The position numbers and the translations under genes are program-made. Source: Escherichia coli (GTDB lineage Bacteria; Pseudomonadota; Gammaproteobacteria; Enterobacterales; Enterobacteriaceae). Taken from it: a DNA stretch of 64,000 nt. Location of the stretch: NCBI RefSeq assembly GCF_030013595.1, contig NZ_CP122768.1; one strand, written 5' to 3'. The notes beneath the pieces are model-generated. The model ran no database searches and was not told where the DNA came from. It worked only from the letters and a program-made list of their open reading frames with translations. Within the stretch, counting starts at the first letter, position 1, and each line of letters begins with the position of its first letter. This document shows positions 327 to 51,207 of this stretch, piece after piece.

Positions 327-1544
327 TTATTTTTTAGCAACATAACGCAACAGGCTGCACTGAAAGATGGTCTTAAACCAGCGGGAATCGAAGTCCCTGA
401 CTTGCCTCAGGAAAAATACGGCACCGGGTTTACGGTCAAATACAGCTTCAAAAGAAGTATTTCCGCTTGCCACAGCTGCAGCGAAGACGGGTAACCAGGC
501 CACGGAATAGCGGTGATTTGCGTCAGGATTAATACCAATCACTGGATTTTTTTGTGACATCATCCATTTATACAGACGCTTGCAGCCATATTCAGGCCAG
601 CGAGCTTCACTGTGCTCACGTAAAAGCTCCTGATACCACCCGTGGACACAAGATTCAGGAATAGACGGAGGGAGATATCCGTTACTTAACCATTTCTCAA
701 TTTCATCGGCATATGTCGGGAACACGAGCCCCAGCCGTTGAAACATATTAGTAACCAGTAATTTCTGGGTTTCCTCCGGTGCACCTTTTTGGCTCAGGAA
801 CAATTTGAAACGCTCAGATGCAGCTTTGATCTCAAAGATGGGGAAAAACTCCCATAGAATAGGGAACTCATTCTCAATACGACTCAGGTACTCTGCTGAC
901 ATTTCAAATTTGAAGAGCGACATCGCCAATGCCTGCGGATGCTGCACTAGTGCACGCCATACTTCAAAGGTTGCCAGCGGTAAATAACCAAATTGATCGT
1001 ACAGGCTACGCATAAATTGCCAGCCGGAATGGGCAGGATCGTTAGCCATCTGTCCGAGAACCAGTGTGATGGTATTAACTTCTGCCTGTGGATTAAAAAG
1101 CTGGGTCGCTTTCTGCAATGAGCGGATGTTGCTTTCTTCTACCGGTAACGAAGATTCGCCACGAATGAAGCAGGGGCGAAAAGCCATCTCCTCACCCGGT
1201 TTAGGAACAACCAACCATGGCCCATTTTTGTTAACGATTGAGCTCAACTCATATTCACCGACAGGCACTCCCTCGCTCATTCTTGATGCTAAGGGGATGG
1301 ATTTCCTCTCGGGTTCACTTAACAGCATGATAACGGGGGAAGGAATCTGCCCAGCACGATGGTTCACTGACTGGCTGAGTAATAGTTCTTTTTCATAATC
1401 ATAGCGCAGGCTGTATTTATAGCGACGAATTTGCCAGGCCATGACCACACCTGCCCCCGTAATACGCATCTCAACAACCTGATCAATACCTGCCTCAAGT
1501 GAAATCAGGTTCTCAATATGTTCGCGCAGACTATAGAGATTCAA
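327..1544 (-). CDS. Uncharacterised 405-aa protein; middle gene of the 3-gene operon
   Basis: Long uninterrupted ORF in the track; 18-bp gap to the upstream gene, 12 bp to the downstream gene; no motif I recognise (no Walker A, no obvious nuclease motif). Confidence 0.7.
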   Translation of the reverse strand: MNLYSLREHIENLISLEAGIDQVVEMRITGAGVVMAWQIRRYKYSLRYDYEKELLLSQSVNHRAGQIPSPVIMLLSEPERKSIPLASRMSEGVPVGEYELSSIVNKNGPWLVVPKPGEEMAFRPCFIRGESSLPVEESNIRSLQKATQLFNPQAEVNTITLVLGQMANDPAHSGWQFMRSLYDQFGYLPLATFEVWRALVQHPQALAMSLFKFEMSAEYLSRIENEFPILWEFFPIFEIKAASERFKLFLSQKGAPEETQKLLVTNMFQRLGLVFPTYADEIEKWLSNGYLPPSIPESCVHGWYQELLREHSEARWPEYGCKRLYKWMMSQKNPVIGINPDANHRYSVAWLPVFAAAVASGNTSFEAVFDRKPGAVFFLRQVRDFDSRWFKTIFQCSLLRYVAKK

Positions 1545-1562
1545 TTCAACAGGACGATCGCT

Positions 1563-3617
1563 CTACGCCGTATAACACCATTCATGCCATGCCTGTAATC
1601 CACTAACGGAGCGCAAATACAACTGCAATGTATATTTTGTCGGCTCACCATTTCTGGAGAACAGAAACGCTCTGGAACCCAGCAGATCATGCAGCGTAAT
1701 GTTTTTATCCAGAGGACGTCCGTTTACATCAAGAGCGAGACAGCCTTTAGCGGGAAAAGGTAACTCAATGTCGATGGGGTCAGCCGCCAAATTAGGCAGA
1801 ACTTGTAATGTAATAAATGCCGGAGGTACCCCTTCCGCTTTAAGTTGTATCTCTGTTCGCCCCTCAGTACGCTTACGTGTAGCCTCCAATGTTTTATCTT
1901 TAAGTTTTGCTACACAAGGATGCTGTGTGGTGATTAAGATAGTGCCTTCATTTGCGTGCATTCCACCTTTTATCTCAATACTGAAATCAGCAGGCAAGAT
2001 ACCGATTTTGCGACGCAAGAGCGTTTCATTGTTACTATTACGGATAGAAAGATATTGAGCCCCCAGCATCTCTTGTATATGACATTGCTCAATTGAAATT
2101 CCGCTCAGGTAACGCGTTACATCAATGCTTTGAATATCCGGTAGTGTAGAAATGACTTTTGGTACACCAATAAATGTTTCATCTGGATGACAAACCCAGC
2201 TTGCACGCTTTCCATTTAGAGCAAACCTTCCGATGCTGATTTGTTCTCTTCCGGTGCGAATCCGATAAGTTTCATTTGCTGTAACTGTAACGTCCTGACA
2301 TCCCTTCACAGGTAGTGCTTTTAGTCCTAATACGTTTACTGCGCTCGATTGGCCATCAAAACCAGCAACATTGCTATTATCCCGAGGGAGTACAATCAGA
2401 ACATCGCTGCTTCGCACACTGCAAGAAGCCTGTCCCTGTAACAGCCATTGATCTGCATCAACGATGAAGGTTAACGGCACCTCACCAATGGCAATTTCAC
2501 TGTCATCAAGTTTAATGCTCCCAACAATCATCCCTCCAGCACGAGCCACTAATGACAAACCAGCCGATGGATTTTGCCTGACAAATCTCACTTCGCTTTT
2601 ACGTAATCGAACTGTTGCCTGTCTGTTTTCCAGGGAAGCATAGGCTGGCCCAAGGCCAGAGACTTCCTCACCATCTTCACAAATGGCAAGTTCAAAGCGC
2701 GTAGTTGACGGCTCGCTTGTTACAGGAAAGGAAACTTCGTCCGGAAGAGATACTATCACCCTAAGCTCATCTGGATGCTTTTCTGACCAATAGAATTGGC
2801 AACGCGTACTCTTATTTTTTTGTAGTCGAGGCTTAGCCTCTACAGAGGCTGCGCATAGCAGTCCATTCAAAAAATGCGTTCCTGTTTCATCATCTAACGG
2901 TATTGGAAACTCGCTTCGCCAGGTAGGGTGAACCTTCTCAAGCTGTTGTACTGGTTCTTTGTGATTTATTAGGTTGTGAGTAAGTACTAAGGAATTGAGG
3001 TTATCAGCCATATGACTGATAAGTTCTACAGAGGTATCTTCGCTAAAAACAGTTGGCAGCGCTGATTTTTCTATGACAGCTCTTGCCAGCGAAAGGGCAG
3101 AAAAACCTGACTGCTTTGCTTGCTCATATTGTCCAAGGATCCTGGAGAAAACAGCCAGAAAGCGACTGTCTGATTCTTTGAGTAGCCGGAAAGGTAAACC
3201 ACCTTCACTGAATAATGTTCCGAGAAAATTGCGTCGTTCAGATTCATAAAATCGAATTGGGCGCAGCCAGTAATCTTCCATCCCTTTCGGTACGATAGTA
3301 CCAAGCTCTGTGGCGGTGAATGAAATCCCTATTTTTTTATATATAGGGTCCCACGTCCATCCGCATTGCCGTTCATAATCCCTGCGGTACCACTCAGAGC
3401 AAAAAAGAACAAAACAGGCAGCAAAGTCCCTATTACATATATTAGATTGTGATTGACCGACCGCACGGAGTAGCTGCGTTAATTGGGTATATTCATCATT
3501 GGTTGCATGATATTCATAAAGAGGACGGCCATCCGGTTGTCTCAACCCTCTAAGATTCACAAAGTTACTTAGCCAGGAAGTACATTTTACCCATGAAATG
3601 TATTCTGATTGACCCAA
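1563..3617 (-). CDS. Uncharacterised 684-aa protein; first gene of the 3-gene operon, positionally equivalent to K-12 yjiT
   Basis: Long ORF next to yjiS with an AT-rich promoter region upstream (3618..4115); GC content visibly lower than neighbouring core genes; no recognisable catalytic motif. Confidence 0.7.
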   Translation of the reverse strand: MGQSEYISWVKCTSWLSNFVNLRGLRQPDGRPLYEYHATNDEYTQLTQLLRAVGQSQSNICNRDFAACFVLFCSEWYRRDYERQCGWTWDPIYKKIGISFTATELGTIVPKGMEDYWLRPIRFYESERRNFLGTLFSEGGLPFRLLKESDSRFLAVFSRILGQYEQAKQSGFSALSLARAVIEKSALPTVFSEDTSVELISHMADNLNSLVLTHNLINHKEPVQQLEKVHPTWRSEFPIPLDDETGTHFLNGLLCAASVEAKPRLQKNKSTRCQFYWSEKHPDELRVIVSLPDEVSFPVTSEPSTTRFELAICEDGEEVSGLGPAYASLENRQATVRLRKSEVRFVRQNPSAGLSLVARAGGMIVGSIKLDDSEIAIGEVPLTFIVDADQWLLQGQASCSVRSSDVLIVLPRDNSNVAGFDGQSSAVNVLGLKALPVKGCQDVTVTANETYRIRTGREQISIGRFALNGKRASWVCHPDETFIGVPKVISTLPDIQSIDVTRYLSGISIEQCHIQEMLGAQYLSIRNSNNETLLRRKIGILPADFSIEIKGGMHANEGTILITTQHPCVAKLKDKTLEATRKRTEGRTEIQLKAEGVPPAFITLQVLPNLAADPIDIELPFPAKGCLALDVNGRPLDKNITLHDLLGSRAFLFSRNGEPTKYTLQLYLRSVSGLQAWHEWCYTA

Positions 3618-4115
3618 AGCAAGCTCCTTAGAGATAAAAGATACAAAAACAAAACCCTACAATACTTCTAATTTGAAAGAAAACTTTTCAAAATATCGTA
3701 TAATTAATCAGGCGGCAACAACTAATTTTTCAGGTCGGTACTATAAATTAATTTTAGATAAAAATGATATCAACTATCTATTAATCACAACTCATTTATC
3801 ACCTGGTTTTATAATTTCAAATGAAAATAAATCTCAAACAATCAAAAAGTATGCAGTAGCTAACATTTAACTTTCCAGGATATAAAACAATTAGAGAAAC
3901 TGCACAATAGCGAATAATGAGAGTTGTAAAGTCAGTCAAAAAACACAAGTAATCAGTGTGCGTTTTTTGACCGTTATCGACATGAGTTTAAAGAGTTTAG
4001 TGAAGAAGATATTCCTGTACACTCCATACCTATTGATGAATTGTCTCGGGAAAATTTTTATAACTTAATTTAAAAACATAAAAACGTTTTATTATATATA
4101 AATCTATAACCCCCA

Positions 4116-4280
4116 TCACTCCACATCCTCCCTGCGTAACCCGATATCCTTCAACCGCTCATCACTCATCTGCTGTAACACCCGCCGGGCCTGCATTTGC
4201 CGCCGCCAACGCCTCACTGCCTGCCAGAGTTGCACAAGTCCAATAAACGGTGCTTTAGCTTTGTTTTCGTGAAATTCCAT
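4116..4280 (-). CDS. yjiS: DUF1127 small protein YjiS
   Basis: Hand translation of minus strand: MEFHENKAKAPFIGLVQLWQAVRRWRRQMQARRVLQQMSDERLKDIGLRREDVE (54 aa), typical DUF1127 sequence; divergent from yjiR as in K-12. Below the 60-aa cutoff of the ORF track. Confidence 0.8.
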   Translation of the reverse strand: MEFHENKAKAPFIGLVQLWQAVRRWRRQMQARRVLQQMSDERLKDIGLRREDVE

Positions 4281-25779: not shown

Positions 25780-26691
25780 ATGGATGACTGTGGTGCGGTT
25801 TTGCATAATATTGAAACTAAATGGCTTTATGATTTTCTGACCCTGGAAAAATGCCGCAATTTTTCCCAGGCGGCAGTTAGTCGCAACGTCTCGCAACCGG
25901 CATTCAGCCGCCGCATCCGTGCACTGGAACAGGCGATTGGCGTTGAATTGTTTAACCGCCAGGTGACGCCGCTGCAACTCTCGGAACAAGGGAAAATCTT
26001 TCATTCGCAGATCCGCCATCTGTTGCAACAGTTAGAAAGCAACCTGGCAGAGCTGCGTGGCGGCAGCGATTACGCGCAACGTAAAATCAAGATAGCCGCT
26101 GCACACTCTCTTTCCCTCGGTCTGTTACCGTCCATTATCAGCCAGATGCCGCCGCTCTTTACCTAGGCGATTGAAGCCATTGATGTTGATGAAGCGGTCG
26201 ATAAACTGCGTGAAGGGCAAAGTGACTGTATTTTTTCCTTTCACGACGAAGATTTGCTGGAAGCGCCGTTTGACCACATTCGCTTATTTGAATCTCAATT
26301 GTTCCCCGTCTGCGCCAGTGACGAACACGGAGAAGCACTGTTTACCCTCGCGCAGCCACACTTTCCGTTACTGAATTACAGCCGCAACTCCTACATGGGG
26401 CGATTGATTAATCGCACCCTGACGCGCCACAGCGAGTTAAGTTTCAGCACCTTTTTTGTCTCTTCGATGAGCGAGCTATTAAAGCAGGTTGCCCTCGACG
26501 GCTGTGGGATTGCCTGGCTGCCGGAATACGCCATCCAACAAGAAATTCGCAGCGGGCAGCTCGTTGTACTGAATCGGGAAGAACTGGTGATCCCGATTCA
26601 GGCCTACGCATACAGGATGAACACCCGTATGAATCCCGTTGCCGAACGCTTCTGGCGTGAACTGCGCGAACTGGAGATTGTGCTTAGCTGA
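25780..26691 (+). pseudogene. hypT: LysR-type regulator HypT (YjiE) interrupted by an in-frame TAG
   Basis: Two track ORFs (25780..26166 and 26254..26691) lie in the same frame, separated only by TAG at 26164..26166; I checked the codons on either side by hand and found no other stop. N-terminal HTH and C-terminal LysR substrate domain are otherwise intact. Confidence 0.8.
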
Positions 26692-28718: not shown

Positions 28719-29492
28719 TCAGGCGTCGACTTTATCCAACGGCCATGAATCAAACAGATAGCCGTCAAAATAAATATCGTCAACGTTCGAGAATTCCAGC
28801 AGACGTTGCTTAACGTTTTCCAGATGCTGCCACATTGCCAGCTTCGCCGCACGGGCATCTTTTTTGATTAACGCGGCGAGGATCTGTTTGTGATCGCCCA
28901 ACCACTCTTTGCGATACAGGCTGTCATCCAGATGGCTGTGCAACTGGATCCACATCGGATTGTTTTCCCGCCACTGCCAGGACTGACGGAATAGCTCCAC
29001 CAGCATGCTGTTATGCGTCGCTTCGGCAATGGCGAGATGGAACTGCATGTCACCACTTTCGCTGCTGCCCGGCGCGCTGGAAGCAAGCTCACGCTCTTCC
29101 AGTTGCAATGCCTGACGCATTTTGACGATATCTTCGCGGGTAGCCTGCAGGGCGGCAAATTCCGCGATGTTACTTTCCAGTAACTGACGCGCCTGTAACA
29201 GCTCAAAAGGACCGGCATCATTGCAGACGTTGGCATCCGGACTGTCTGTGTTCTGGCTGTCTGAGCTATCAAGAACATAAATACCGGCACCCCGGCGCAC
29301 TTCCACCAGCCCTTTGATCTCCAGCATGATCAGCGCTTCACGTACCACCGTCCGCGTGACATCAAGCATTTCTGCAATTTCACGCTCCGGCGGCAGCCGT
29401 TCGCCAGGATTGTACGGCGTCTTTATGATCAGATCGCGGATCATCGCCCCGACTTCCTGGTAAGGTCTTTGCGCAGAGGTGGCAGATTTCAT
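28719..29492 (-). CDS. uxuR: GntR/FadR-family repressor UxuR
   Basis: 257-aa ORF with GntR HTH and FCD domain; synteny with uxuAB. Confidence 0.9.
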   Translation of the reverse strand: MKSATSAQRPYQEVGAMIRDLIIKTPYNPGERLPPEREIAEMLDVTRTVVREALIMLEIKGLVEVRRGAGIYVLDSSDSQNTDSPDANVCNDAGPFELLQARQLLESNIAEFAALQATREDIVKMRQALQLEERELASSAPGSSESGDMQFHLAIAEATHNSMLVELFRQSWQWRENNPMWIQLHSHLDDSLYRKEWLGDHKQILAALIKKDARAAKLAMWQHLENVKQRLLEFSNVDDIYFDGYLFDSWPLDKVDA

Positions 29493-29705: not shown

Positions 29706-31166
29706 TTACAGCGCAGCCACACACTCGCGCGCACCGCGTTCGCACAGCTGCTGATATGCCGCCGTCACCGCGCCAACAAAGTCGGCATTCTGCGGCAGAT
29801 CATCGGCAAAGATACCGCTCAGGCCCAGCAGCGCTTTCACGCGGTCTGCGCCCTGATACTGCGCGTTGATCTTCTGGAACTCCGCCAGCATCGGGTCGAC
29901 CACGTCAATAGCTTTACCCTGCTCATCCACGCCCTGGGTGTAACGCATCCAGCCAGCCACGCCCAGCGCCAGGTGACGCCAGCTACCGCCGTTTTGCAGG
30001 TGCAGACGCACCGGATCCAGCAGACGCTGCGGTAACTTCTGGCTGCCGTCCATTGCAATCTGCCAGGTACGGTGACGCAGAGACGGGTTGCTGAAACGCT
30101 CGATCAGCAGCGTCGCATAGGCGTTCAGGTCTGTACCTTCCGGCATCGACAGCGTTGGCGCTTGTTCCTGCATCATCAGGGCGAAGGCCGCTTTGCGATA
30201 ATCCGGGTTAGTCATGGTGTCGGCAATGGTTTCATAGCCGCCGAGGTAACCGAGGTACGCCAGGAAAGAGTGGCTGCCGTTAAGCATGCGCAGTTTCATC
30301 ATTTCGAACGGCACAACGTCTGCAACGAACTGTGCGCCCACTTTATCCCAGTCCGGACGACCATTAACGAAGTTATCTTCAATCACCCACTGACGGAACG
30401 GTTCGCAGGCAATGGCGCACGGGTCGTAAACACCCAGCTGGTCAGCAATTTCCTGTAAGGTTTCTGGCGTCGCCGCCGGAACGATGCGGTCAACCATGGT
30501 GCACGGGAAGGTGACGTTCTCTTCAATCCATGCCGCCAGCTGTGGATCACGCGCCTGAGCCAGCCCCAGTACCGCGACCTTCGCCACATGACCGTTTTCA
30601 CGCACGTTATCGCAGGACATCACCGTAAATGCTTTCAGCCCTTTTTCACGACGCAGACGCAAGGCTTCGACGATGTAACCAATCGCGGACTTCGGCGCAG
30701 TCGGGTTTTCCAGATCGTGCTTGATCAGCGGGTTATTGAGATCCAGCTGACCGCTTGCCGCATCGGCGCAATAACCTTTCTCTGTGACCGTCAGGGAGAC
30801 AATCGCCGTCTGCGGACGCGCCATCGCGTTGAGAATACCTTCACAACCGTCGATTTCCGGATGCAGGGCTTCTTTCATCGAACCGATAATTTTCAGCTCG
30901 GTGCTTTCTGCGCCTTTTTCCGCCACGGTGTACAGCAGTTGCTGTTTTTTCAGGTTTTCGATCAGCACGCGGTCGTTACCTGGCATCAGGTTAACTTCGC
31001 AGATACCCCAGTCGCTGTCGGTGCTTTCCAGCAGATGATGGGTATACAGCGCCTGGTGCGCGCGGTGAAACGCCCCGCAACCGAGATGCACAATGCGTGA
31101 TTCCAGACGAGAATGATCCCATGACGGGCGGGCAACCGGCAGATTGCTGTCAACAATAGTAGTCAT
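29706..31166 (-). CDS. uxuB: D-mannonate oxidoreductase
   Basis: 486-aa ORF, mannitol-dehydrogenase family with Rossmann motif HLGCGAFHRAH. Confidence 0.9.
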   Translation of the reverse strand: MTTIVDSNLPVARPSWDHSRLESRIVHLGCGAFHRAHQALYTHHLLESTDSDWGICEVNLMPGNDRVLIENLKKQQLLYTVAEKGAESTELKIIGSMKEALHPEIDGCEGILNAMARPQTAIVSLTVTEKGYCADAASGQLDLNNPLIKHDLENPTAPKSAIGYIVEALRLRREKGLKAFTVMSCDNVRENGHVAKVAVLGLAQARDPQLAAWIEENVTFPCTMVDRIVPAATPETLQEIADQLGVYDPCAIACEPFRQWVIEDNFVNGRPDWDKVGAQFVADVVPFEMMKLRMLNGSHSFLAYLGYLGGYETIADTMTNPDYRKAAFALMMQEQAPTLSMPEGTDLNAYATLLIERFSNPSLRHRTWQIAMDGSQKLPQRLLDPVRLHLQNGGSWRHLALGVAGWMRYTQGVDEQGKAIDVVDPMLAEFQKINAQYQGADRVKALLGLSGIFADDLPQNADFVGAVTAAYQQLCERGARECVAAL

Positions 31167-31246
31167 CGTAAACTCCAGAATCCGTCTTCAGAGAGTGACG
31201 GCAAGGAAGAAGGAACCGGCACGGCGCGCAGCCATGCCGGAGGATA

Positions 31247-32431
31247 TTAACGGCTAAAGAAAGCGCGCTGGATCGCCAGTTCGACACCGCGAACTTCGGC
31301 CAGGCCTTTCAGACGACCAATTGCGGAGTAACCTGGGTTGGTTTTCTTCTTCAGGTCGTCCAGCATCTGATGACCGTGGTCCGGACGCATCGGGATCAGG
31401 TCTTCTTTGCCTTCCGCTTTACGACGGTGTTCTTCTTCAACAATCGCTTTCACCACTTCGTACATATCAACGTCACCGTTCAGGTGCGCCGCTTCGTGGA
31501 AGGTTTTCGGGTTATCTTCACGCATGGTGGAGCGCAGATGGGTGAAGTAAATGCGCGGACCAAACTGCTTGATCATATCAACCAGATCGTTGTCAGCACG
31601 CACGCCGTAGGAACCGGTGCACATGGTGAAACCGTTCGCCATGCTGTTTACGGTATCAACCATCCACTGCATATCTTCAATGGTGGAAACAATGCGCGGC
31701 AGGCCGAGGATCGGGCGCGGCGGATCGTCCGGGTGAACAGCCATACGCACGCCGACTTCTTCGGCAACCGGAATAATCGCTTTCAGGAAGACAGCGAAGT
31801 TTTCGCGCAGTTTGGCTTTGTCGATATCTTTGTACAGCTCCAGGTGCTTACGGAACTGGTCGAGGGTATACCCTTCTTCCGCGCCCGGCAGACCGGCAAT
31901 GATGTTACGGGTCAGACGCGCTTTGTCTTCGTCGCTCATAGTGGCGAAGCGTTCAGCGGCCTGAGCAATTTCTTCTTCGGTGTAATCCGCTTCCGCGCCT
32001 GGACGCTTGAGGATATGCATTTCGAATGCAGCGAATTCGATCTGGTCGAAGCGCAGAGCTTTGGAGCCGTCTGGCAGCACGTATTCGAGGTCAGTACGGG
32101 TCCAGTCGAGCACCGGCATGAAGTTGTAGCACACGGTGCGAATGCCGCACTGCGCCAGGTTGCGCAGAGTCTGCTGATAGTTAGCGATCCACTGTTCATA
32201 GTTGCCAGTGTGGGTTTTGATATCTTCGTGAATTGGCACGCTTTCTACGACAGACCATACCAGGCCTGCGTCTTCAACGATCGCCTTGCGTTTGAGGATC
32301 TCTTCTACGGACCATACTTCGCCGTTCGGGATATGGTGCAGCGCGGTAACCACGCCAGTTGCGCCCGCCTGACGGACATCAGCTAAAGAAACCGGATCGT
32401 TTGGGCCGTACCAGCGCCAGGTCTGTTCCAT
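31247..32431 (-). CDS. uxuA: D-mannonate dehydratase
   Basis: ORF with start chosen at [14 protein letters not shown] (394 aa); UxuA family. Confidence 0.9.
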
Positions 32432-32770
32432 GATTTTTCCTCTTTCACATAGTGGGTTCCACAGCAAAGAGACGTGGAGCCCCGGAGTTGTTTAGGTATC
32501 CGGATGAACAACCAGACCGCAGCCGTGGCGTTGCATCGGATGAGATGGCGTATAAGTTCTACCTTTTGGTAAGACATGTCAACCCGAAATCTAAAATTGG
32601 TTAACCACATCACAAGAATTTCACTCTCCTGGTTGTTGCTGCAAATTGCAGCAAAGGGTAATCGATGGTTATTGATCAGAGGATGTGACATTCATCGCAA
32701 CAATGGTTGACCAATTTACATAACATGTCGCCCAAAATAACAACGGTTCAACCAGGTAAGGTAAAACGTT

Positions 32771-34114
32771 ATGCATGTGCTTAACATTCTCTGGGTGGTA
32801 TTCGGCATTGGTCTGATGCTGGTACTGAATTTGAAGTTCAAAATCAATTCAATGGTGGCTTTGTTGGTGGCGGCGCTGTCCGTCGGGATGCTGGCGGGCA
32901 TGGATTTGATGTCGCTGCTGCACACCATGAAAGCGGGCTTCGGCAACACGCTGGGGGAACTGGCTATCATCGTGGTGTTCGGTGCGGTCATCGGTAAATT
33001 GATGGTCGACTCCGGCGCGGCGCACCAGATAGCGCATACGCTGCTGGCGCGTCTCGGTCTGCGCTATGTACAGCTGTCGGTGATTATCATCGGCCTGATT
33101 TTCGGTCTGGCGATGTTTTATTAAGTGGCCTTTATCATGTTAGCGCCGCTGGTTATTGTTATTGCCGCCGAAGCTAAAATTCCGTTCCTGAAACTGGCGA
33201 TCCCGGCAGTAGCAGCTGCCACTACCGCACATTCACTGTTCCCACCGCAGCCGGGTCCGGTGGCGCTGGTGAATGCTTATGGCGCGGATATGGGGATGGT
33301 TTATATCTATGGCGTACTGGTGACGATCCCAAGTGTCATCTGCGCAGGTCTGATCCTGCCGAAGTTCCTCGGCAATCTTGAGCGCCCAACGCCATCATTC
33401 CTGAAAGCAGATCAACCGGTAGATATGAATAATCTGCCCTCTTTCGGCGTTTCGATTCTGGTGCCGCTGATCCCGGCGATCATTATGATCTCTACCACCA
33501 TCGCCAATATCTGGCTGGTAAAAGATACCCCTGCCTGGGAAGTGGTTAACTTTATCGGTTCCTCGCCGATTGCAATGTTTATTGCGATGGTGGTTGCATT
33601 CGTACTCTTCGGCACCGCGCGCGGGCACGATATGCAGTGGGTGATGAACGCTTTTGAAAGCGCGGTGAAGAGTATTGCAATGGTGATTCTGATCATCGGT
33701 GCGGGTGGCGTGCTGAAGCAGACCATCATCGACACCGGCATTGGCGACACCATCGGCATGTTGATGTCCCACGGCAATATCTCGCCCTACATCATGGCAT
33801 GGCTGATCACCGTACTGATTCGTCTGGCGACGGGTCAGGGTGTCGTTTCGGCGATGACCGCTGCCGGGATTATCAGTGCAGCAATCCTTGATCCAGCAAC
33901 TGGTCAGCTGGTTGGCGTGAATCCGGCGCTGCTGGTACTGGCGACGGCTGCGGGTTCCAACACCCTCACCCACATTAACGATGCATCTTTCTGGTTGTTC
34001 AAAGGTTACTTTGACCTGTCAGTAAAAGATACGTTGAAAACCTGGGGTCTGCTGGAGCTGGTCAACTCCGTGGTTGGGCTGATTATTGTGCTGATTATTA
34101 GCATGGTAGCGTAA
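32771..34114 (+). pseudogene. gntP: GntP-family gluconate/fructuronate permease interrupted by an in-frame TAA
   Basis: Track ORFs 32771..33124 and 33125..34114 are in one frame; the only break is TAA at 33122..33124 (...[15 protein letters not shown]...). Combined length 447 codons, as expected for GntP. Confidence 0.8.
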
Positions 34115-34169
34115 AAGAACACCTGAGCCTGCCATTGGCAGGCTCTGACTGATGACAAAGTCTAAAAAT

Positions 34170-34335
34170 GTGCCCGGCCAGTCCCCTCGCCCCTCCGGGG
34201 AGAGGGTTAGGGTGAGGGGAACAGACCAGCAAAGTGCGCTTTGTTTATGCCAGATGCGACGCTGACGCGTCTTATCTGGCCTACAAAGGGCTAACGTGCA
34301 GGTTTTGTAGGTCTGATAGCGTAGCGCCTCAGGTA
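34170..34335. repeat. Cluster of REP/BIME palindromic elements
   Basis: Convergent gntP-fimH intergenic region contains CCCCTCGCCCCTCCGGGGAGAGGG and TGCCAGATGCGACGCTGACGCGTCTTATCTGGCCTACA REP-type palindromes. Confidence 0.6.
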
Positions 34336-34363
34336 CCAGCATTAGCAATGCGCTGTAATTTTT

Positions 34364-35266
34364 TTATTGATAAACAAAAGTCACGCCAATAATCGATTGC
34401 ACATTCCCTGCAGTCACCTGCCCTCCGGTACGTGCGTAATTTGCCGTTAATCCCAGACTTACCGCCGAAGTCCCTACTGCTCCTAACGATACCGTGTTAT
34501 TCGCTGGAATAATCGTACCGTTGCGCGTCAACTGTACGCCGACGCCCTGCGCTGGTGAAAACGACGCGGTATTGGTGAAAATCGAGTTGCCCGCATCTGC
34601 GGTTGTGCCGGAGAGGTAATACCCCAGGTTTTGGCTTTTCGCACAATAAACGGTAAGAGGAATTGGCACTGAACCAGGGTAGTCCGGCAGAGTAACGGTG
34701 ACATCACGAGCAGAAACATCACAGCCGCCAGTAGGCACCACCACATCATTATTGGCGTAAATATTCCACACAAACTGGAAATCATCGCTGTTATAGTTGT
34801 TGGTCTGTCGCAAAATTAGCACGGCAATTAATGAGCCAGCTTTAATCGCCACCCCGCCAGCACTGCTCACAGGCGTCAAATAAAGCGCCACCGGCCACGG
34901 CTTATCCGTTCTCGAATTATAAACAACCCGCGGCGTTTCGCTGGTGGTAGGAAATGGATAGCTACTGCCACTATATTTTACGGTCCCGGAAAAATTAGAT
35001 AACACGCCGCCATAAGCCGAGCCTCGTTGCAGTGTGACATAGTCTGTAATGGTTTCCGGGTAATCGTTATGGCAAAAGATTTGCGTCGAAAGATCTACGA
35101 CCAGGTTTTGCCCCACATTCACGGCGGGCGCAAGGTTTACATAAACATTGGCGCTGCCACCGCCAATAGGGATAGCGGTACCATTGGCGGTTTTACAGGC
35201 GAATGACCAGGCATTTACCGACCAGCCCATCAGCAGTACAGCAAACAGGGTAATAACTCGTTTCAT
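34364..35266 (-). CDS. fimH: Type 1 fimbrial tip adhesin FimH
   Basis: ORF MKRVITLFAVLLMGWSVNAWSFACKTANGTAIPIGGG... is near-identical to the FimH lectin-domain sequence as I recall it. Confidence 0.95.
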   Translation of the reverse strand: MKRVITLFAVLLMGWSVNAWSFACKTANGTAIPIGGGSANVYVNLAPAVNVGQNLVVDLSTQIFCHNDYPETITDYVTLQRGSAYGGVLSNFSGTVKYSGSSYPFPTTSETPRVVYNSRTDKPWPVALYLTPVSSAGGVAIKAGSLIAVLILRQTNNYNSDDFQFVWNIYANNDVVVPTGGCDVSARDVTVTLPDYPGSVPIPLTVYCAKSQNLGYYLSGTTADAGNSIFTNTASFSPAQGVGVQLTRNGTIIPANNTVSLGAVGTSAVSLGLTANYARTGGQVTAGNVQSIIGVTFVYQ

Positions 35267-49136: not shown

Positions 49137-49251
49137 CATGGACTATATAATAAATTGCTCTAATCATTTCCCTTACGAATATATGGGCCAAAAGCCCAAG
49201 AATCATAATAAGGGTGATGGACTAATTTTTCATTAAATCGAACACTATAAG

Positions 49252-51207
49252 TTAATTTTTTATATTTTTACGTACAGCATTAATACTGGGCAAAGAGGAA
49301 AGATAATCTATAAACTTATCGATAGTGATTTCCCCTTCGCAACACTCAAACCCATCAATGATATTTTTCGCCATTTTTCCATTTTCATTTGTTTGATATA
49401 TCACTCCAGGTATTCGTTGAAAAAAACTAGATAATGCATATTTGTCCGCTACATATGTATCATCCACATGATATTTCCCACCGAGCATAGTTGTAGTAAC
49501 AATAAGCTTATACACACCTTTGGGTTGCCATGTTGATGGTAGTTCGAATTCTTTAATGATCACATCAAGATGATTAAGATAATGTTCAGAAATTCGATTT
49601 ATTTGTTGAAAATAAGAACGCATAAATTTATTATTATGATCATGTATTAATGAGCTATCTCCAACGATGTTACACACTTGCTGATAGTACTTACCATAAT
49701 ATATTGGTTGACCATTTGATTTTAGTTCTGTAAAAATCAAACAATCATCCAAGAGAATCACGCAATCGCACTGATAATTAGCATGAGCATCAATTGGAGA
49801 AGCTTTAATCCCCGCATCACGAACTTGTTTTATAAATTGTTGTTCATGAAATCGCCCTTTACTTGCTTGAGAAATTTTTTTGGAACCAAATAATGACATT
49901 AGAGAGCGAGTCACTGAGCTATTTGCTATTAATGCAGGCATTAAGAATAAACCGTCCATACAGGGAATAAATGGGCAATCATTAAGATCATGTGATTTTG
50001 AATTGAAGGTAAAATAATCTATCAGTTTTTTTGCTGCATCTGCTGCAATCCCCTTACGTTGAAAGAATGATAACCAACTCTCACGGCTTTTTATGATCAG
50101 CCAGCGCTCCAACTGTAGGGGTATAGGCTTTGTCGATGAAAATCTTTTGCTCATTTCTTCTTTAGATAACTCGACTAAACATTGATAAGCGTGCACCCAA
50201 TTAAATAATGATATATTCCCATATTCTTCATGAAGGTCATCAGGAGACATATTTTCTAACTCGCTTAGATGAAATGAGCTAAAAACGCCATCAGAATTTA
50301 AGTAAGATGGCATATGATCCTTTACCCAACTATTTAGATGAAAATGTTTGTTACTAAATTCATGAACTTCGCTATATAGATGTGACGCTCTCATCATTAG
50401 TCTATTTCTTGCAATCTCATAATCTCGGTATAAACAAAAACTATCAACCTCAAGAGAGTAAATGTTATTATCCAATTTTGTAAATACTGCACTACTTAGT
50501 CTGAAAAAATCTCTTACTCTGCTTAATGAGTCAAAAACATTCCACTCATTAAGGTACCCTCCCATTGAAAGCAAGGTTTGTTTATTCACACAAGAAGTTA
50601 GTTTCAATGGCCCATGAGTCCGTAAATAAGAAAATATTCTTCCGGTGTAATTGGCTACCTCATCAAATGCCCTATCGATAACTCGAAAATATTCGATATC
50701 AGGTTCAGCATGAATATTAATATTTTCAGAAACGATAAATAATGGAAAAATCCTCTTCATTTTTTTAGGATCATTGACCACAACCAAGGATGATAATGAT
50801 GATAAAAACATCTCACAAAACATGATGAGATTAAGTATTAATGCATGTGATTTTTTTGTATTTTTACGCCAAATACCAGCACATTTTGTAGCCGCAAAGA
50901 AAGAATTATTTATATCATGCATAATTTTACATTGACTCTCGAACTCAGAGATTAGTTCAATGTTATCAGGAAATGAGTTTCCTAGCTCATTAATACATTT
51001 TTTGAATGTATTGTTATACTCAACTTCAGTCTGAACTGAAAATCTATTATAATAGATGGAAGATATTCTTAGCACATCCAAGGCGATATCTATACTAATA
51101 TCATCTCTTTTTATGTACTCACAAAAAAAAGAACAAAACTGTTTCGGGTCGTTAGCAAGATTACTAATTCTAGTGGTATCATAAACTTTTTCCATTTTTC
51201 CATACAT
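49252..51207 (-). CDS. Uncharacterised low-GC 651-aa protein at the leuX islet
   Basis: Long ORF in strongly AT-rich DNA immediately 3' of tRNA-Leu (leuX); possible PD-(D/E)xK-like motif (CDCVILLDDCLIFTELK) near residue 480; otherwise no recognisable domain. Confidence 0.7.
   Translation of the reverse strand: MYGKMEKVYDTTRISNLANDPKQFCSFFCEYIKRDDISIDIALDVLRISSIYYNRFSVQTEVEYNNTFKKCINELGNSFPDNIELISEFESQCKIMHDINNSFFAATKCAGIWRKNTKKSHALILNLIMFCEMFLSSLSSLVVVNDPKKMKRIFPLFIVSENINIHAEPDIEYFRVIDRAFDEVANYTGRIFSYLRTHGPLKLTSCVNKQTLLSMGGYLNEWNVFDSLSRVRDFFRLSSAVFTKLDNNIYSLEVDSFCLYRDYEIARNRLMMRASHLYSEVHEFSNKHFHLNSWVKDHMPSYLNSDGVFSSFHLSELENMSPDDLHEEYGNISLFNWVHAYQCLVELSKEEMSKRFSSTKPIPLQLERWLIIKSRESWLSFFQRKGIAADAAKKLIDYFTFNSKSHDLNDCPFIPCMDGLFLMPALIANSSVTRSLMSLFGSKKISQASKGRFHEQQFIKQVRDAGIKASPIDAHANYQCDCVILLDDCLIFTELKSNGQPIYYGKYYQQVCNIVGDSSLIHDHNNKFMRSYFQQINRISEHYLNHLDVIIKEFELPSTWQPKGVYKLIVTTTMLGGKYHVDDTYVADKYALSSFFQRIPGVIYQTNENGKMAKNIIDGFECCEGEITIDKFIDYLSSLPSINAVRKNIKN

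Follow-up and report, generated by a model that had tools for sequence, protein, structure and literature searches.

The gntP locus and its ochre codon

The window, a stretch of 64,000 nucleotides of Escherichia coli DNA (contig NZ_CP122768.1), carries a pseudogene of gntP, the gene for the fructuronate/gluconate:H+ symporter, on the plus strand at 32771..34114, where 447 codons are interrupted at codon 118. The gene order, uxuR-uxuB-uxuA, gntP and fimH (fimH-fimA region), is that of annotated genomes. The interruption is a premature ochre codon, TAA, at 33122..33124 (plus strand), which replaces Glu118 through a G-to-T change at 33122. An N-terminal ORF of 117 residues plus the stop (32771..33124, plus strand) ends with GLAMFY. 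A C-terminal remnant ORF of 329 codons (33125..34114, plus strand) begins with VAFIMLAPL at GTG119, and the frame is open from this GTG (33125) to the normal stop at 34112..34114. Gene callers start the downstream ORF at ATG123 (33137), which gives a product of 325 residues.

The two pieces are collinear with positions 1–117 and 120–447 of NF007459, the NCBIfam equivalog for gluconate permease GntP, which has 447 positions; PF02447 (GntP_permease) is recorded for both. When the stop is replaced by Glu, the 447-residue protein scores 908.7 bits against NF007459, above the cutoff of 647, and an exact look-up shows that it is identical to GNTP_ECOLI. The locus shares with K-12 GntP (P0AC94, NF007459, PF02447) 100% identity once codon 118 is restored, a position divergent from uxuAB and adjoining fimH, and a full-length, collinear profile match. 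In contrast to K-12, the window frame is broken at codon 118 and yields only fragments of 117 and 329 residues; for lack of an uninterrupted full-length frame, it belongs to the GntP family as a pseudogene rather than as a functional member. Neither the ORFs nor the alignment with NF007459 reveals a second interruption, which agrees with an earlier sequence-only reading that the TAA alone breaks the permease frame.

The same reading had taken Glu (GAA) as the K-12 codon and the lesion as a one-base change. Both points are borne out by the identity of the restored protein to GNTP_ECOLI and by strain 2012C-4221, the closest complete genome with an intact gntP, which reads TAT GAA GTG at this site. 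GAA occupies codon 118 in 2012C-4221, in EFF60 and in every other intact allele examined, and E118 is invariant among the aligned Edwardsiella and Citrobacter orthologs. Across 31242..34858 (3.6 kb), from uxuA through the shared control region and gntP to the gntP-fimH spacer, the window and 2012C-4221 differ at a single position, 33122 (T in the window, G in 2012C-4221). The gntP lesion is a single G-to-T transversion that converts GAA to TAA in an otherwise unchanged gene.

The neighboring uxu genes are intact, as the sequence-only reading had stated for uxuAB. The genes uxuA (mannonate dehydratase; 31247..32431, minus strand) and uxuB (fructuronate reductase; 29706..31166, minus strand) encode proteins identical to those of 2012C-4221, in which gntP is intact. 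UxuA is WP_000438582.1 in 2012C-4221 and in two isolates from UK pig faeces, HCP5S3_I2 and LCP30S3_I5; UxuB is WP_000208189.1, and its gene differs from that of 2012C-4221 by 17 synonymous changes. The regulator gene uxuR (28719..29492, minus strand) is an uninterrupted ORF of 257 residues with zero base differences from the annotated uxuR of the pig isolates (WP_000833682.1). The divergent uxuA-gntP control region (32432..32770) is unchanged relative to 2012C-4221 and contains, according to the literature, a UxuR site, as UxuR binds the gntP/uxuA spacer (PMC5934670).

Inheritance and apparent recurrence of the allele

An exact 71-mer that contains the TAA is present in two of 5,426 complete E. 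coli genomes and absent from the other 5,424. The two genomes are those of the pig isolates HCP5S3_I2 and LCP30S3_I5, in both of which gntP is a pseudogene according to PGAP ('internal stop'; NZ_CM149870.1 and NZ_CM149862.1). They are by far the nearest complete genomes to the window, with a reported identity of 100.0% over 24 kb, compared with 99.4% for the next genome. A comparison with the window over 64 kb shows 42 SNPs, one 1-bp indel, one IS1 and one IS3 difference, and the 12 kb around the TAA contain four SNPs. These differences indicate that the window strain and the pig isolates are distinct and that the allele is shared by descent. The isolates match the window in the stop (TAA), its codon and its haplotype; unlike the window, they carry a G82S change and IS1 and IS3 insertions, and they lack the hypT and yjiT stops described below.

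The same TAA was found by exact-product look-ups in at least five draft assemblies (GCA_002968075.1, GCA_021647095.1, GCA_002233385.1, GCA_012651895.1 and GCA_021646965.1), which are 99.95–100% identical to the window over 4–16 kb. The allele is confined to genomes that are 99.9–100% identical to the window, plus one metagenome contig. A search of the JGI metagenomes with a TAA-bearing 31-mer, in which both flanking synonymous variants were allowed, returned no match.

The sequence-only reading had offered sequencing error as one account of the stop and had proposed a comparison with related strains. This comparison speaks against error: 2012C-4221 has GAA, and the pig isolates and the drafts share the TAA. 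For the window strain truly to carry GAA, the TAA would have to be a sequencing or assembly error, and the observation that contigs from other backgrounds stop or start exactly at gntP nt 351–353, which could reflect ambiguous base calls, would fit that. However, neither random nor systematic error would follow phylogeny, as this allele does in both complete genomes and in five or more drafts produced by different projects, and we consider an error extremely unlikely. Because the allele follows one lineage across independent projects, with a sense codon in intact orthologs and outgroups and the lesion repeated in independent related assemblies, it is a genuine mutation that one E. coli lineage has inherited.

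The gntP sequence of the window has acquired no further change and that of the pig isolates one missense, which are too few events for a constraint test. The scarcity of secondary lesions suggests that the loss is recent, and it makes the evidence of decay thin. The missense in the pig isolates is a derived G82S (GGC to AGC), equivalent to window position 33014.

The metagenome contig (ERZ27247176 k141_43149) carries the same TAA on a different haplotype, with 33 synonymous differences from the window gntP, the nearest of which lies 4 bp upstream. The closest complete genome to this second background is that of EFF60, a strain from swine-manure effluent with an intact gntP; the contig is 99.94% identical to it, with five SNPs over 8 kb, and within gntP the two differ only at nt 352. 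The TTC-TAT-TAA version that marks the second haplotype was not found in complete genomes. The TAA of this single metagenome contig looks like an independent occurrence of G352T.

Other lesions lie close to the same codon. In CP090319.1, an IS1 (3207..3992 of the retrieved segment) is inserted in gntP with a 9-bp target duplication, TATGAAGTG, that corresponds exactly to codons 117–119; in the uxuA-gntP-fimH region this strain shares only about 98% identity with the window. Another strain has a 10-bp deletion just upstream of codon 118. Contigs from other backgrounds end at gntP nt 352 and nt 351 or start at nt 353, and one scaffold has an N-gap after nt 357. Such breaks could reflect a mixture of G and T at nt 352 within samples, an IS insertion or assembler behavior. 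The 117-residue product is indexed on 243 contigs, most of them short. We considered a mutational hotspot at codon 118 on the basis of the IS1 insertion, the scaffold gap, the contig ends and the second TAA haplotype, but did not adopt it: look-ups by the exact 117- and 325-residue products return only lesions in codons ~115–122 or frameshifts just upstream, so the clustering is an ascertainment effect.

Consequences for the protein and other lesions in the window

The TAA removes 330 of 447 residues (74%). A sequence search of PDB chains with the restored GntP gave no match, and the truncation was placed by hydropathy. The stop falls within a hydrophobic stretch (residues 95–147), and the N-terminal product would comprise roughly three and a half transmembrane segments. 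Upstream of GTG119 and ATG123, the predicted anti-Shine-Dalgarno pairing energies are -1.9 and -2.8 kcal/mol, respectively, and the reference values in the window are a background median of -2.55 and a real-gene median of -5.75 kcal/mol; neither start has a ribosome-binding site above background. With the break in the middle of a membrane segment, 74% of the protein lost and weak downstream starts, the window gntP is most likely a null allele.

Restoration of function would require that the two fragments cooperate or that the stop be read through. Co-expressed halves of some transporters can form a working transporter, and a split GntP might still function if ribosomes restarted at the GTG (33125) or the ATG123 (33137) codon and the two pieces, of 117 and ~329 residues, assembled. 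The GTG directly abuts the stop (TAAGTG), so low-level reinitiation is conceivable; the GntP sequence is unchanged in both fragments, and the allele has persisted through some divergence, with no further lesions in the window copy. However, pairing at both starts is only at background level, the break lies inside a hydrophobic membrane segment rather than in a loop, and the pig isolates have since gained G82S in the N-terminal piece. Persistence needs no retained function either, since gntP is deleted in ~16% of genomes. We regard a functional split GntP as very unlikely.

A nonsense suppressor tRNA from another part of the genome would have to read through the TAA of gntP and also the TAG codons in hypT and yjiT; the three in-frame stops within 64 kb (one TAA, two TAG) could all be read by an ochre suppressor. 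The chance of this is close to negligible. The only tRNA gene in the window is leuX, which can mutate to an amber suppressor, but its anticodon is the normal CAA. The lesions also differ in distribution, as the pig isolates carry the gntP stop and neither the hypT nor the yjiT stop. Termination is most efficient at UAA, and ochre suppressors are rare in natural isolates. There is no support for reinitiation followed by complementation between the fragments, nor for suppression. Programmed recoding, whether as selenocysteine, as pyrrolysine or by readthrough, was also rejected: the codon is UAA, which is not known to encode selenocysteine or pyrrolysine, GAA stands at this site in the orthologs, and only one lineage and one metagenome contig carry the stop.

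A second nonsense lesion in the window had been claimed in the sequence-only reading, and the window in fact contains two besides that of gntP. The gene hypT (yjiE, hypochlorite-response regulator; 25780..26691) has W129* (TGG to TAG) at 26164..26166, and yjiT (327..3617, minus strand) has L685* (TTG to TAG) at 1563..1565. Comparison with the pig isolates and 2012C-4221 identifies both window stops as derived. The hypT stop is common to GCA_002968075.1, GCA_012651895.1 and GCA_021646965.1, which belong to the same sub-lineage, and its presence in three drafts indicates that this lesion is real too. Because the pig isolates carry the gntP stop only, the hypT stop is probably later than that of gntP. 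The window-specific SNPs comprise about nine nonsynonymous or nonsense and seven synonymous changes, with transitions and transversions mixed. We rejected a mutator signature, since the mixed spectrum and the ratio of about 9:7 reflect ordinary recent divergence.

Several further differences were observed. At the same Trp codon of hypT, TAG and TGA stops also occur in unrelated backgrounds with intact gntP. The annotated YjiT of the pig isolates is intact, with 1096 residues. Their IS1 splits a pentapeptide-repeat/type III effector gene that is intact in the window (12669..14639; 656 residues), and their IS3-family element adjoins yjiS at about window 4272..4277, where the window has no insertion. 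Compared with the pig isolates, the window has lost 1 bp at 49256, close to the 3′ end of a minus-strand hypothetical gene of ~678 residues (49160..51196 in relatives), and this deletion alters the C-terminus of the protein.

Loss of gntP in E. coli and the uptake probably affected

A search with the gntP coding sequence identified 4,531 complete genomes with a copy that covers at least 80% of the query, and about 848 of 5,379 complete genomes (~16%, roughly one in six) retain only a remnant of 190–217 bp. The structure of the remnant and its intact flanks were inspected in two of the ~848 genomes, 214-4 and STEC299, in which gntP nt 1–58, a filler of ~54 bp and the last ~105 nt of the gene lie between intact uxuA and fimH (2501..2720 and 2501..2750 of the two inspected segments). 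The deleted portion is equivalent to window 32829..34009. This internal-deletion allele resembles that of the window in that GntP is lost while uxuA, uxuB and fimH are intact on either side. It differs in that about 1.2 kb is replaced by the filler and that it occurs in ~16% of genomes, whereas the window has a point mutation in one rare lineage. Some Shigella have lost the entire gntP-uxuABR segment, and gene loss around gntP is thus already known from the E. coli/Shigella complex (PMC4374849); these large deletions take uxuABR and fim, whereas in the window gntP alone is hit and fim and uxu are intact. The E118* allele itself is already known, as RefSeq annotates the identical allele as a pseudogene, and the species commonly loses gntP but keeps uxuAB. 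gntP appears to be among the E. coli genes most often lost while neighboring catabolic genes stay.

GntP was originally described as a high-affinity gluconate permease, and other gluconate carriers are GntT, GntU and IdnT. UxuB and UxuA also act on intracellular fructuronate that is formed from glucuronate (ExuT, then UxaC). Since fructuronate also arises inside the cell in this way, uxuAB would remain useful without GntP. More recent work assigns GntP to the UxuR regulon as the fructuronate transporter (Bates Utz et al. 2004, as cited in PMC5934670), and gntP has likewise been called "encoding a fructuronate transporter" (PMC4374849). The lost function is most likely the uptake of external fructuronate. 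The sequence-only reading had suggested relaxed selection on the pathway as a whole. Relaxed or absent selection would apply to the transporter, which is dispensable, as it is deleted with uxuAB kept in ~16% of genomes, but not to the pathway, in which UxuA, UxuB and uxuR are intact; whatever relaxation exists concerns the transporter and the uptake of external fructuronate.

We consider it highly probable that an inherited G-to-T nonsense mutation produced a young gntP pseudogene and that the transporter is dispensable. In the scheme that we propose, a spontaneous transversion turned codon 118 from GAA (Glu) into TAA, and the change became fixed in the lineage of the window strain, the two UK pig isolates and several drafts. 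Translation would yield only 117 of the 447 residues, with the break midway through a membrane segment, and no functional permease. External fructuronate uptake would be lost and gluconate entry covered by other GntP-family transporters, while glucuronate could still be imported by ExuT and catabolized with the intact UxuB and UxuA. The persistence of the allele may be due to many E. coli being able to do without GntP; the gene has been lost repeatedly by other routes. The predicted phenotype of the strain is no growth on external fructuronate with continued use of glucuronate and gluconate. In annotation, the window gntP should be labeled a pseudogene, as PGAP does for the same allele.

The loss of GntP might instead be advantageous in gut E. 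coli, perhaps in those associated with swine, with E118* as one of several convergent knock-outs in which uxuAB are kept. G352T also occurs on the unrelated EFF60-like haplotype, the gene is broken elsewhere by the IS1 insertion at TATGAAGTG, the 10-bp deletion and the widespread internal deletion, and both complete TAA genomes as well as EFF60 come from swine sources. However, the recurrence near codon 118 is an ascertainment effect, the second G352T occurrence is known from a single metagenome contig, and neutrality alone should yield the same nonsense change more than once when hundreds of thousands of assemblies are searched. A full-text literature search returned nothing relevant to adaptive gntP loss. 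We regard selection for the loss as unlikely; if it did operate, free fructuronate uptake would be costly in some niche. The frequent loss of gntP with its catabolic neighbors kept could bear on studies of sugar-acid nutrition in the gut.

Copies of gntP-like sequence were also observed on plasmids. Plasmid-borne fragments were considered as the source of 117-residue 'partial' proteins labeled as Klebsiella and were rejected, as the plasmid matches, nine full-length copies aside, miss the 5′ end. On 169 plasmids, mostly of Klebsiella, there is an unannotated, ~85%-identical 3′ fragment of a gntP-like gene that corresponds to gntP nt ~964–1344. A full-length E. coli-like gntP is present on nine very large 'plasmid' records, some of which are chromosome-sized.
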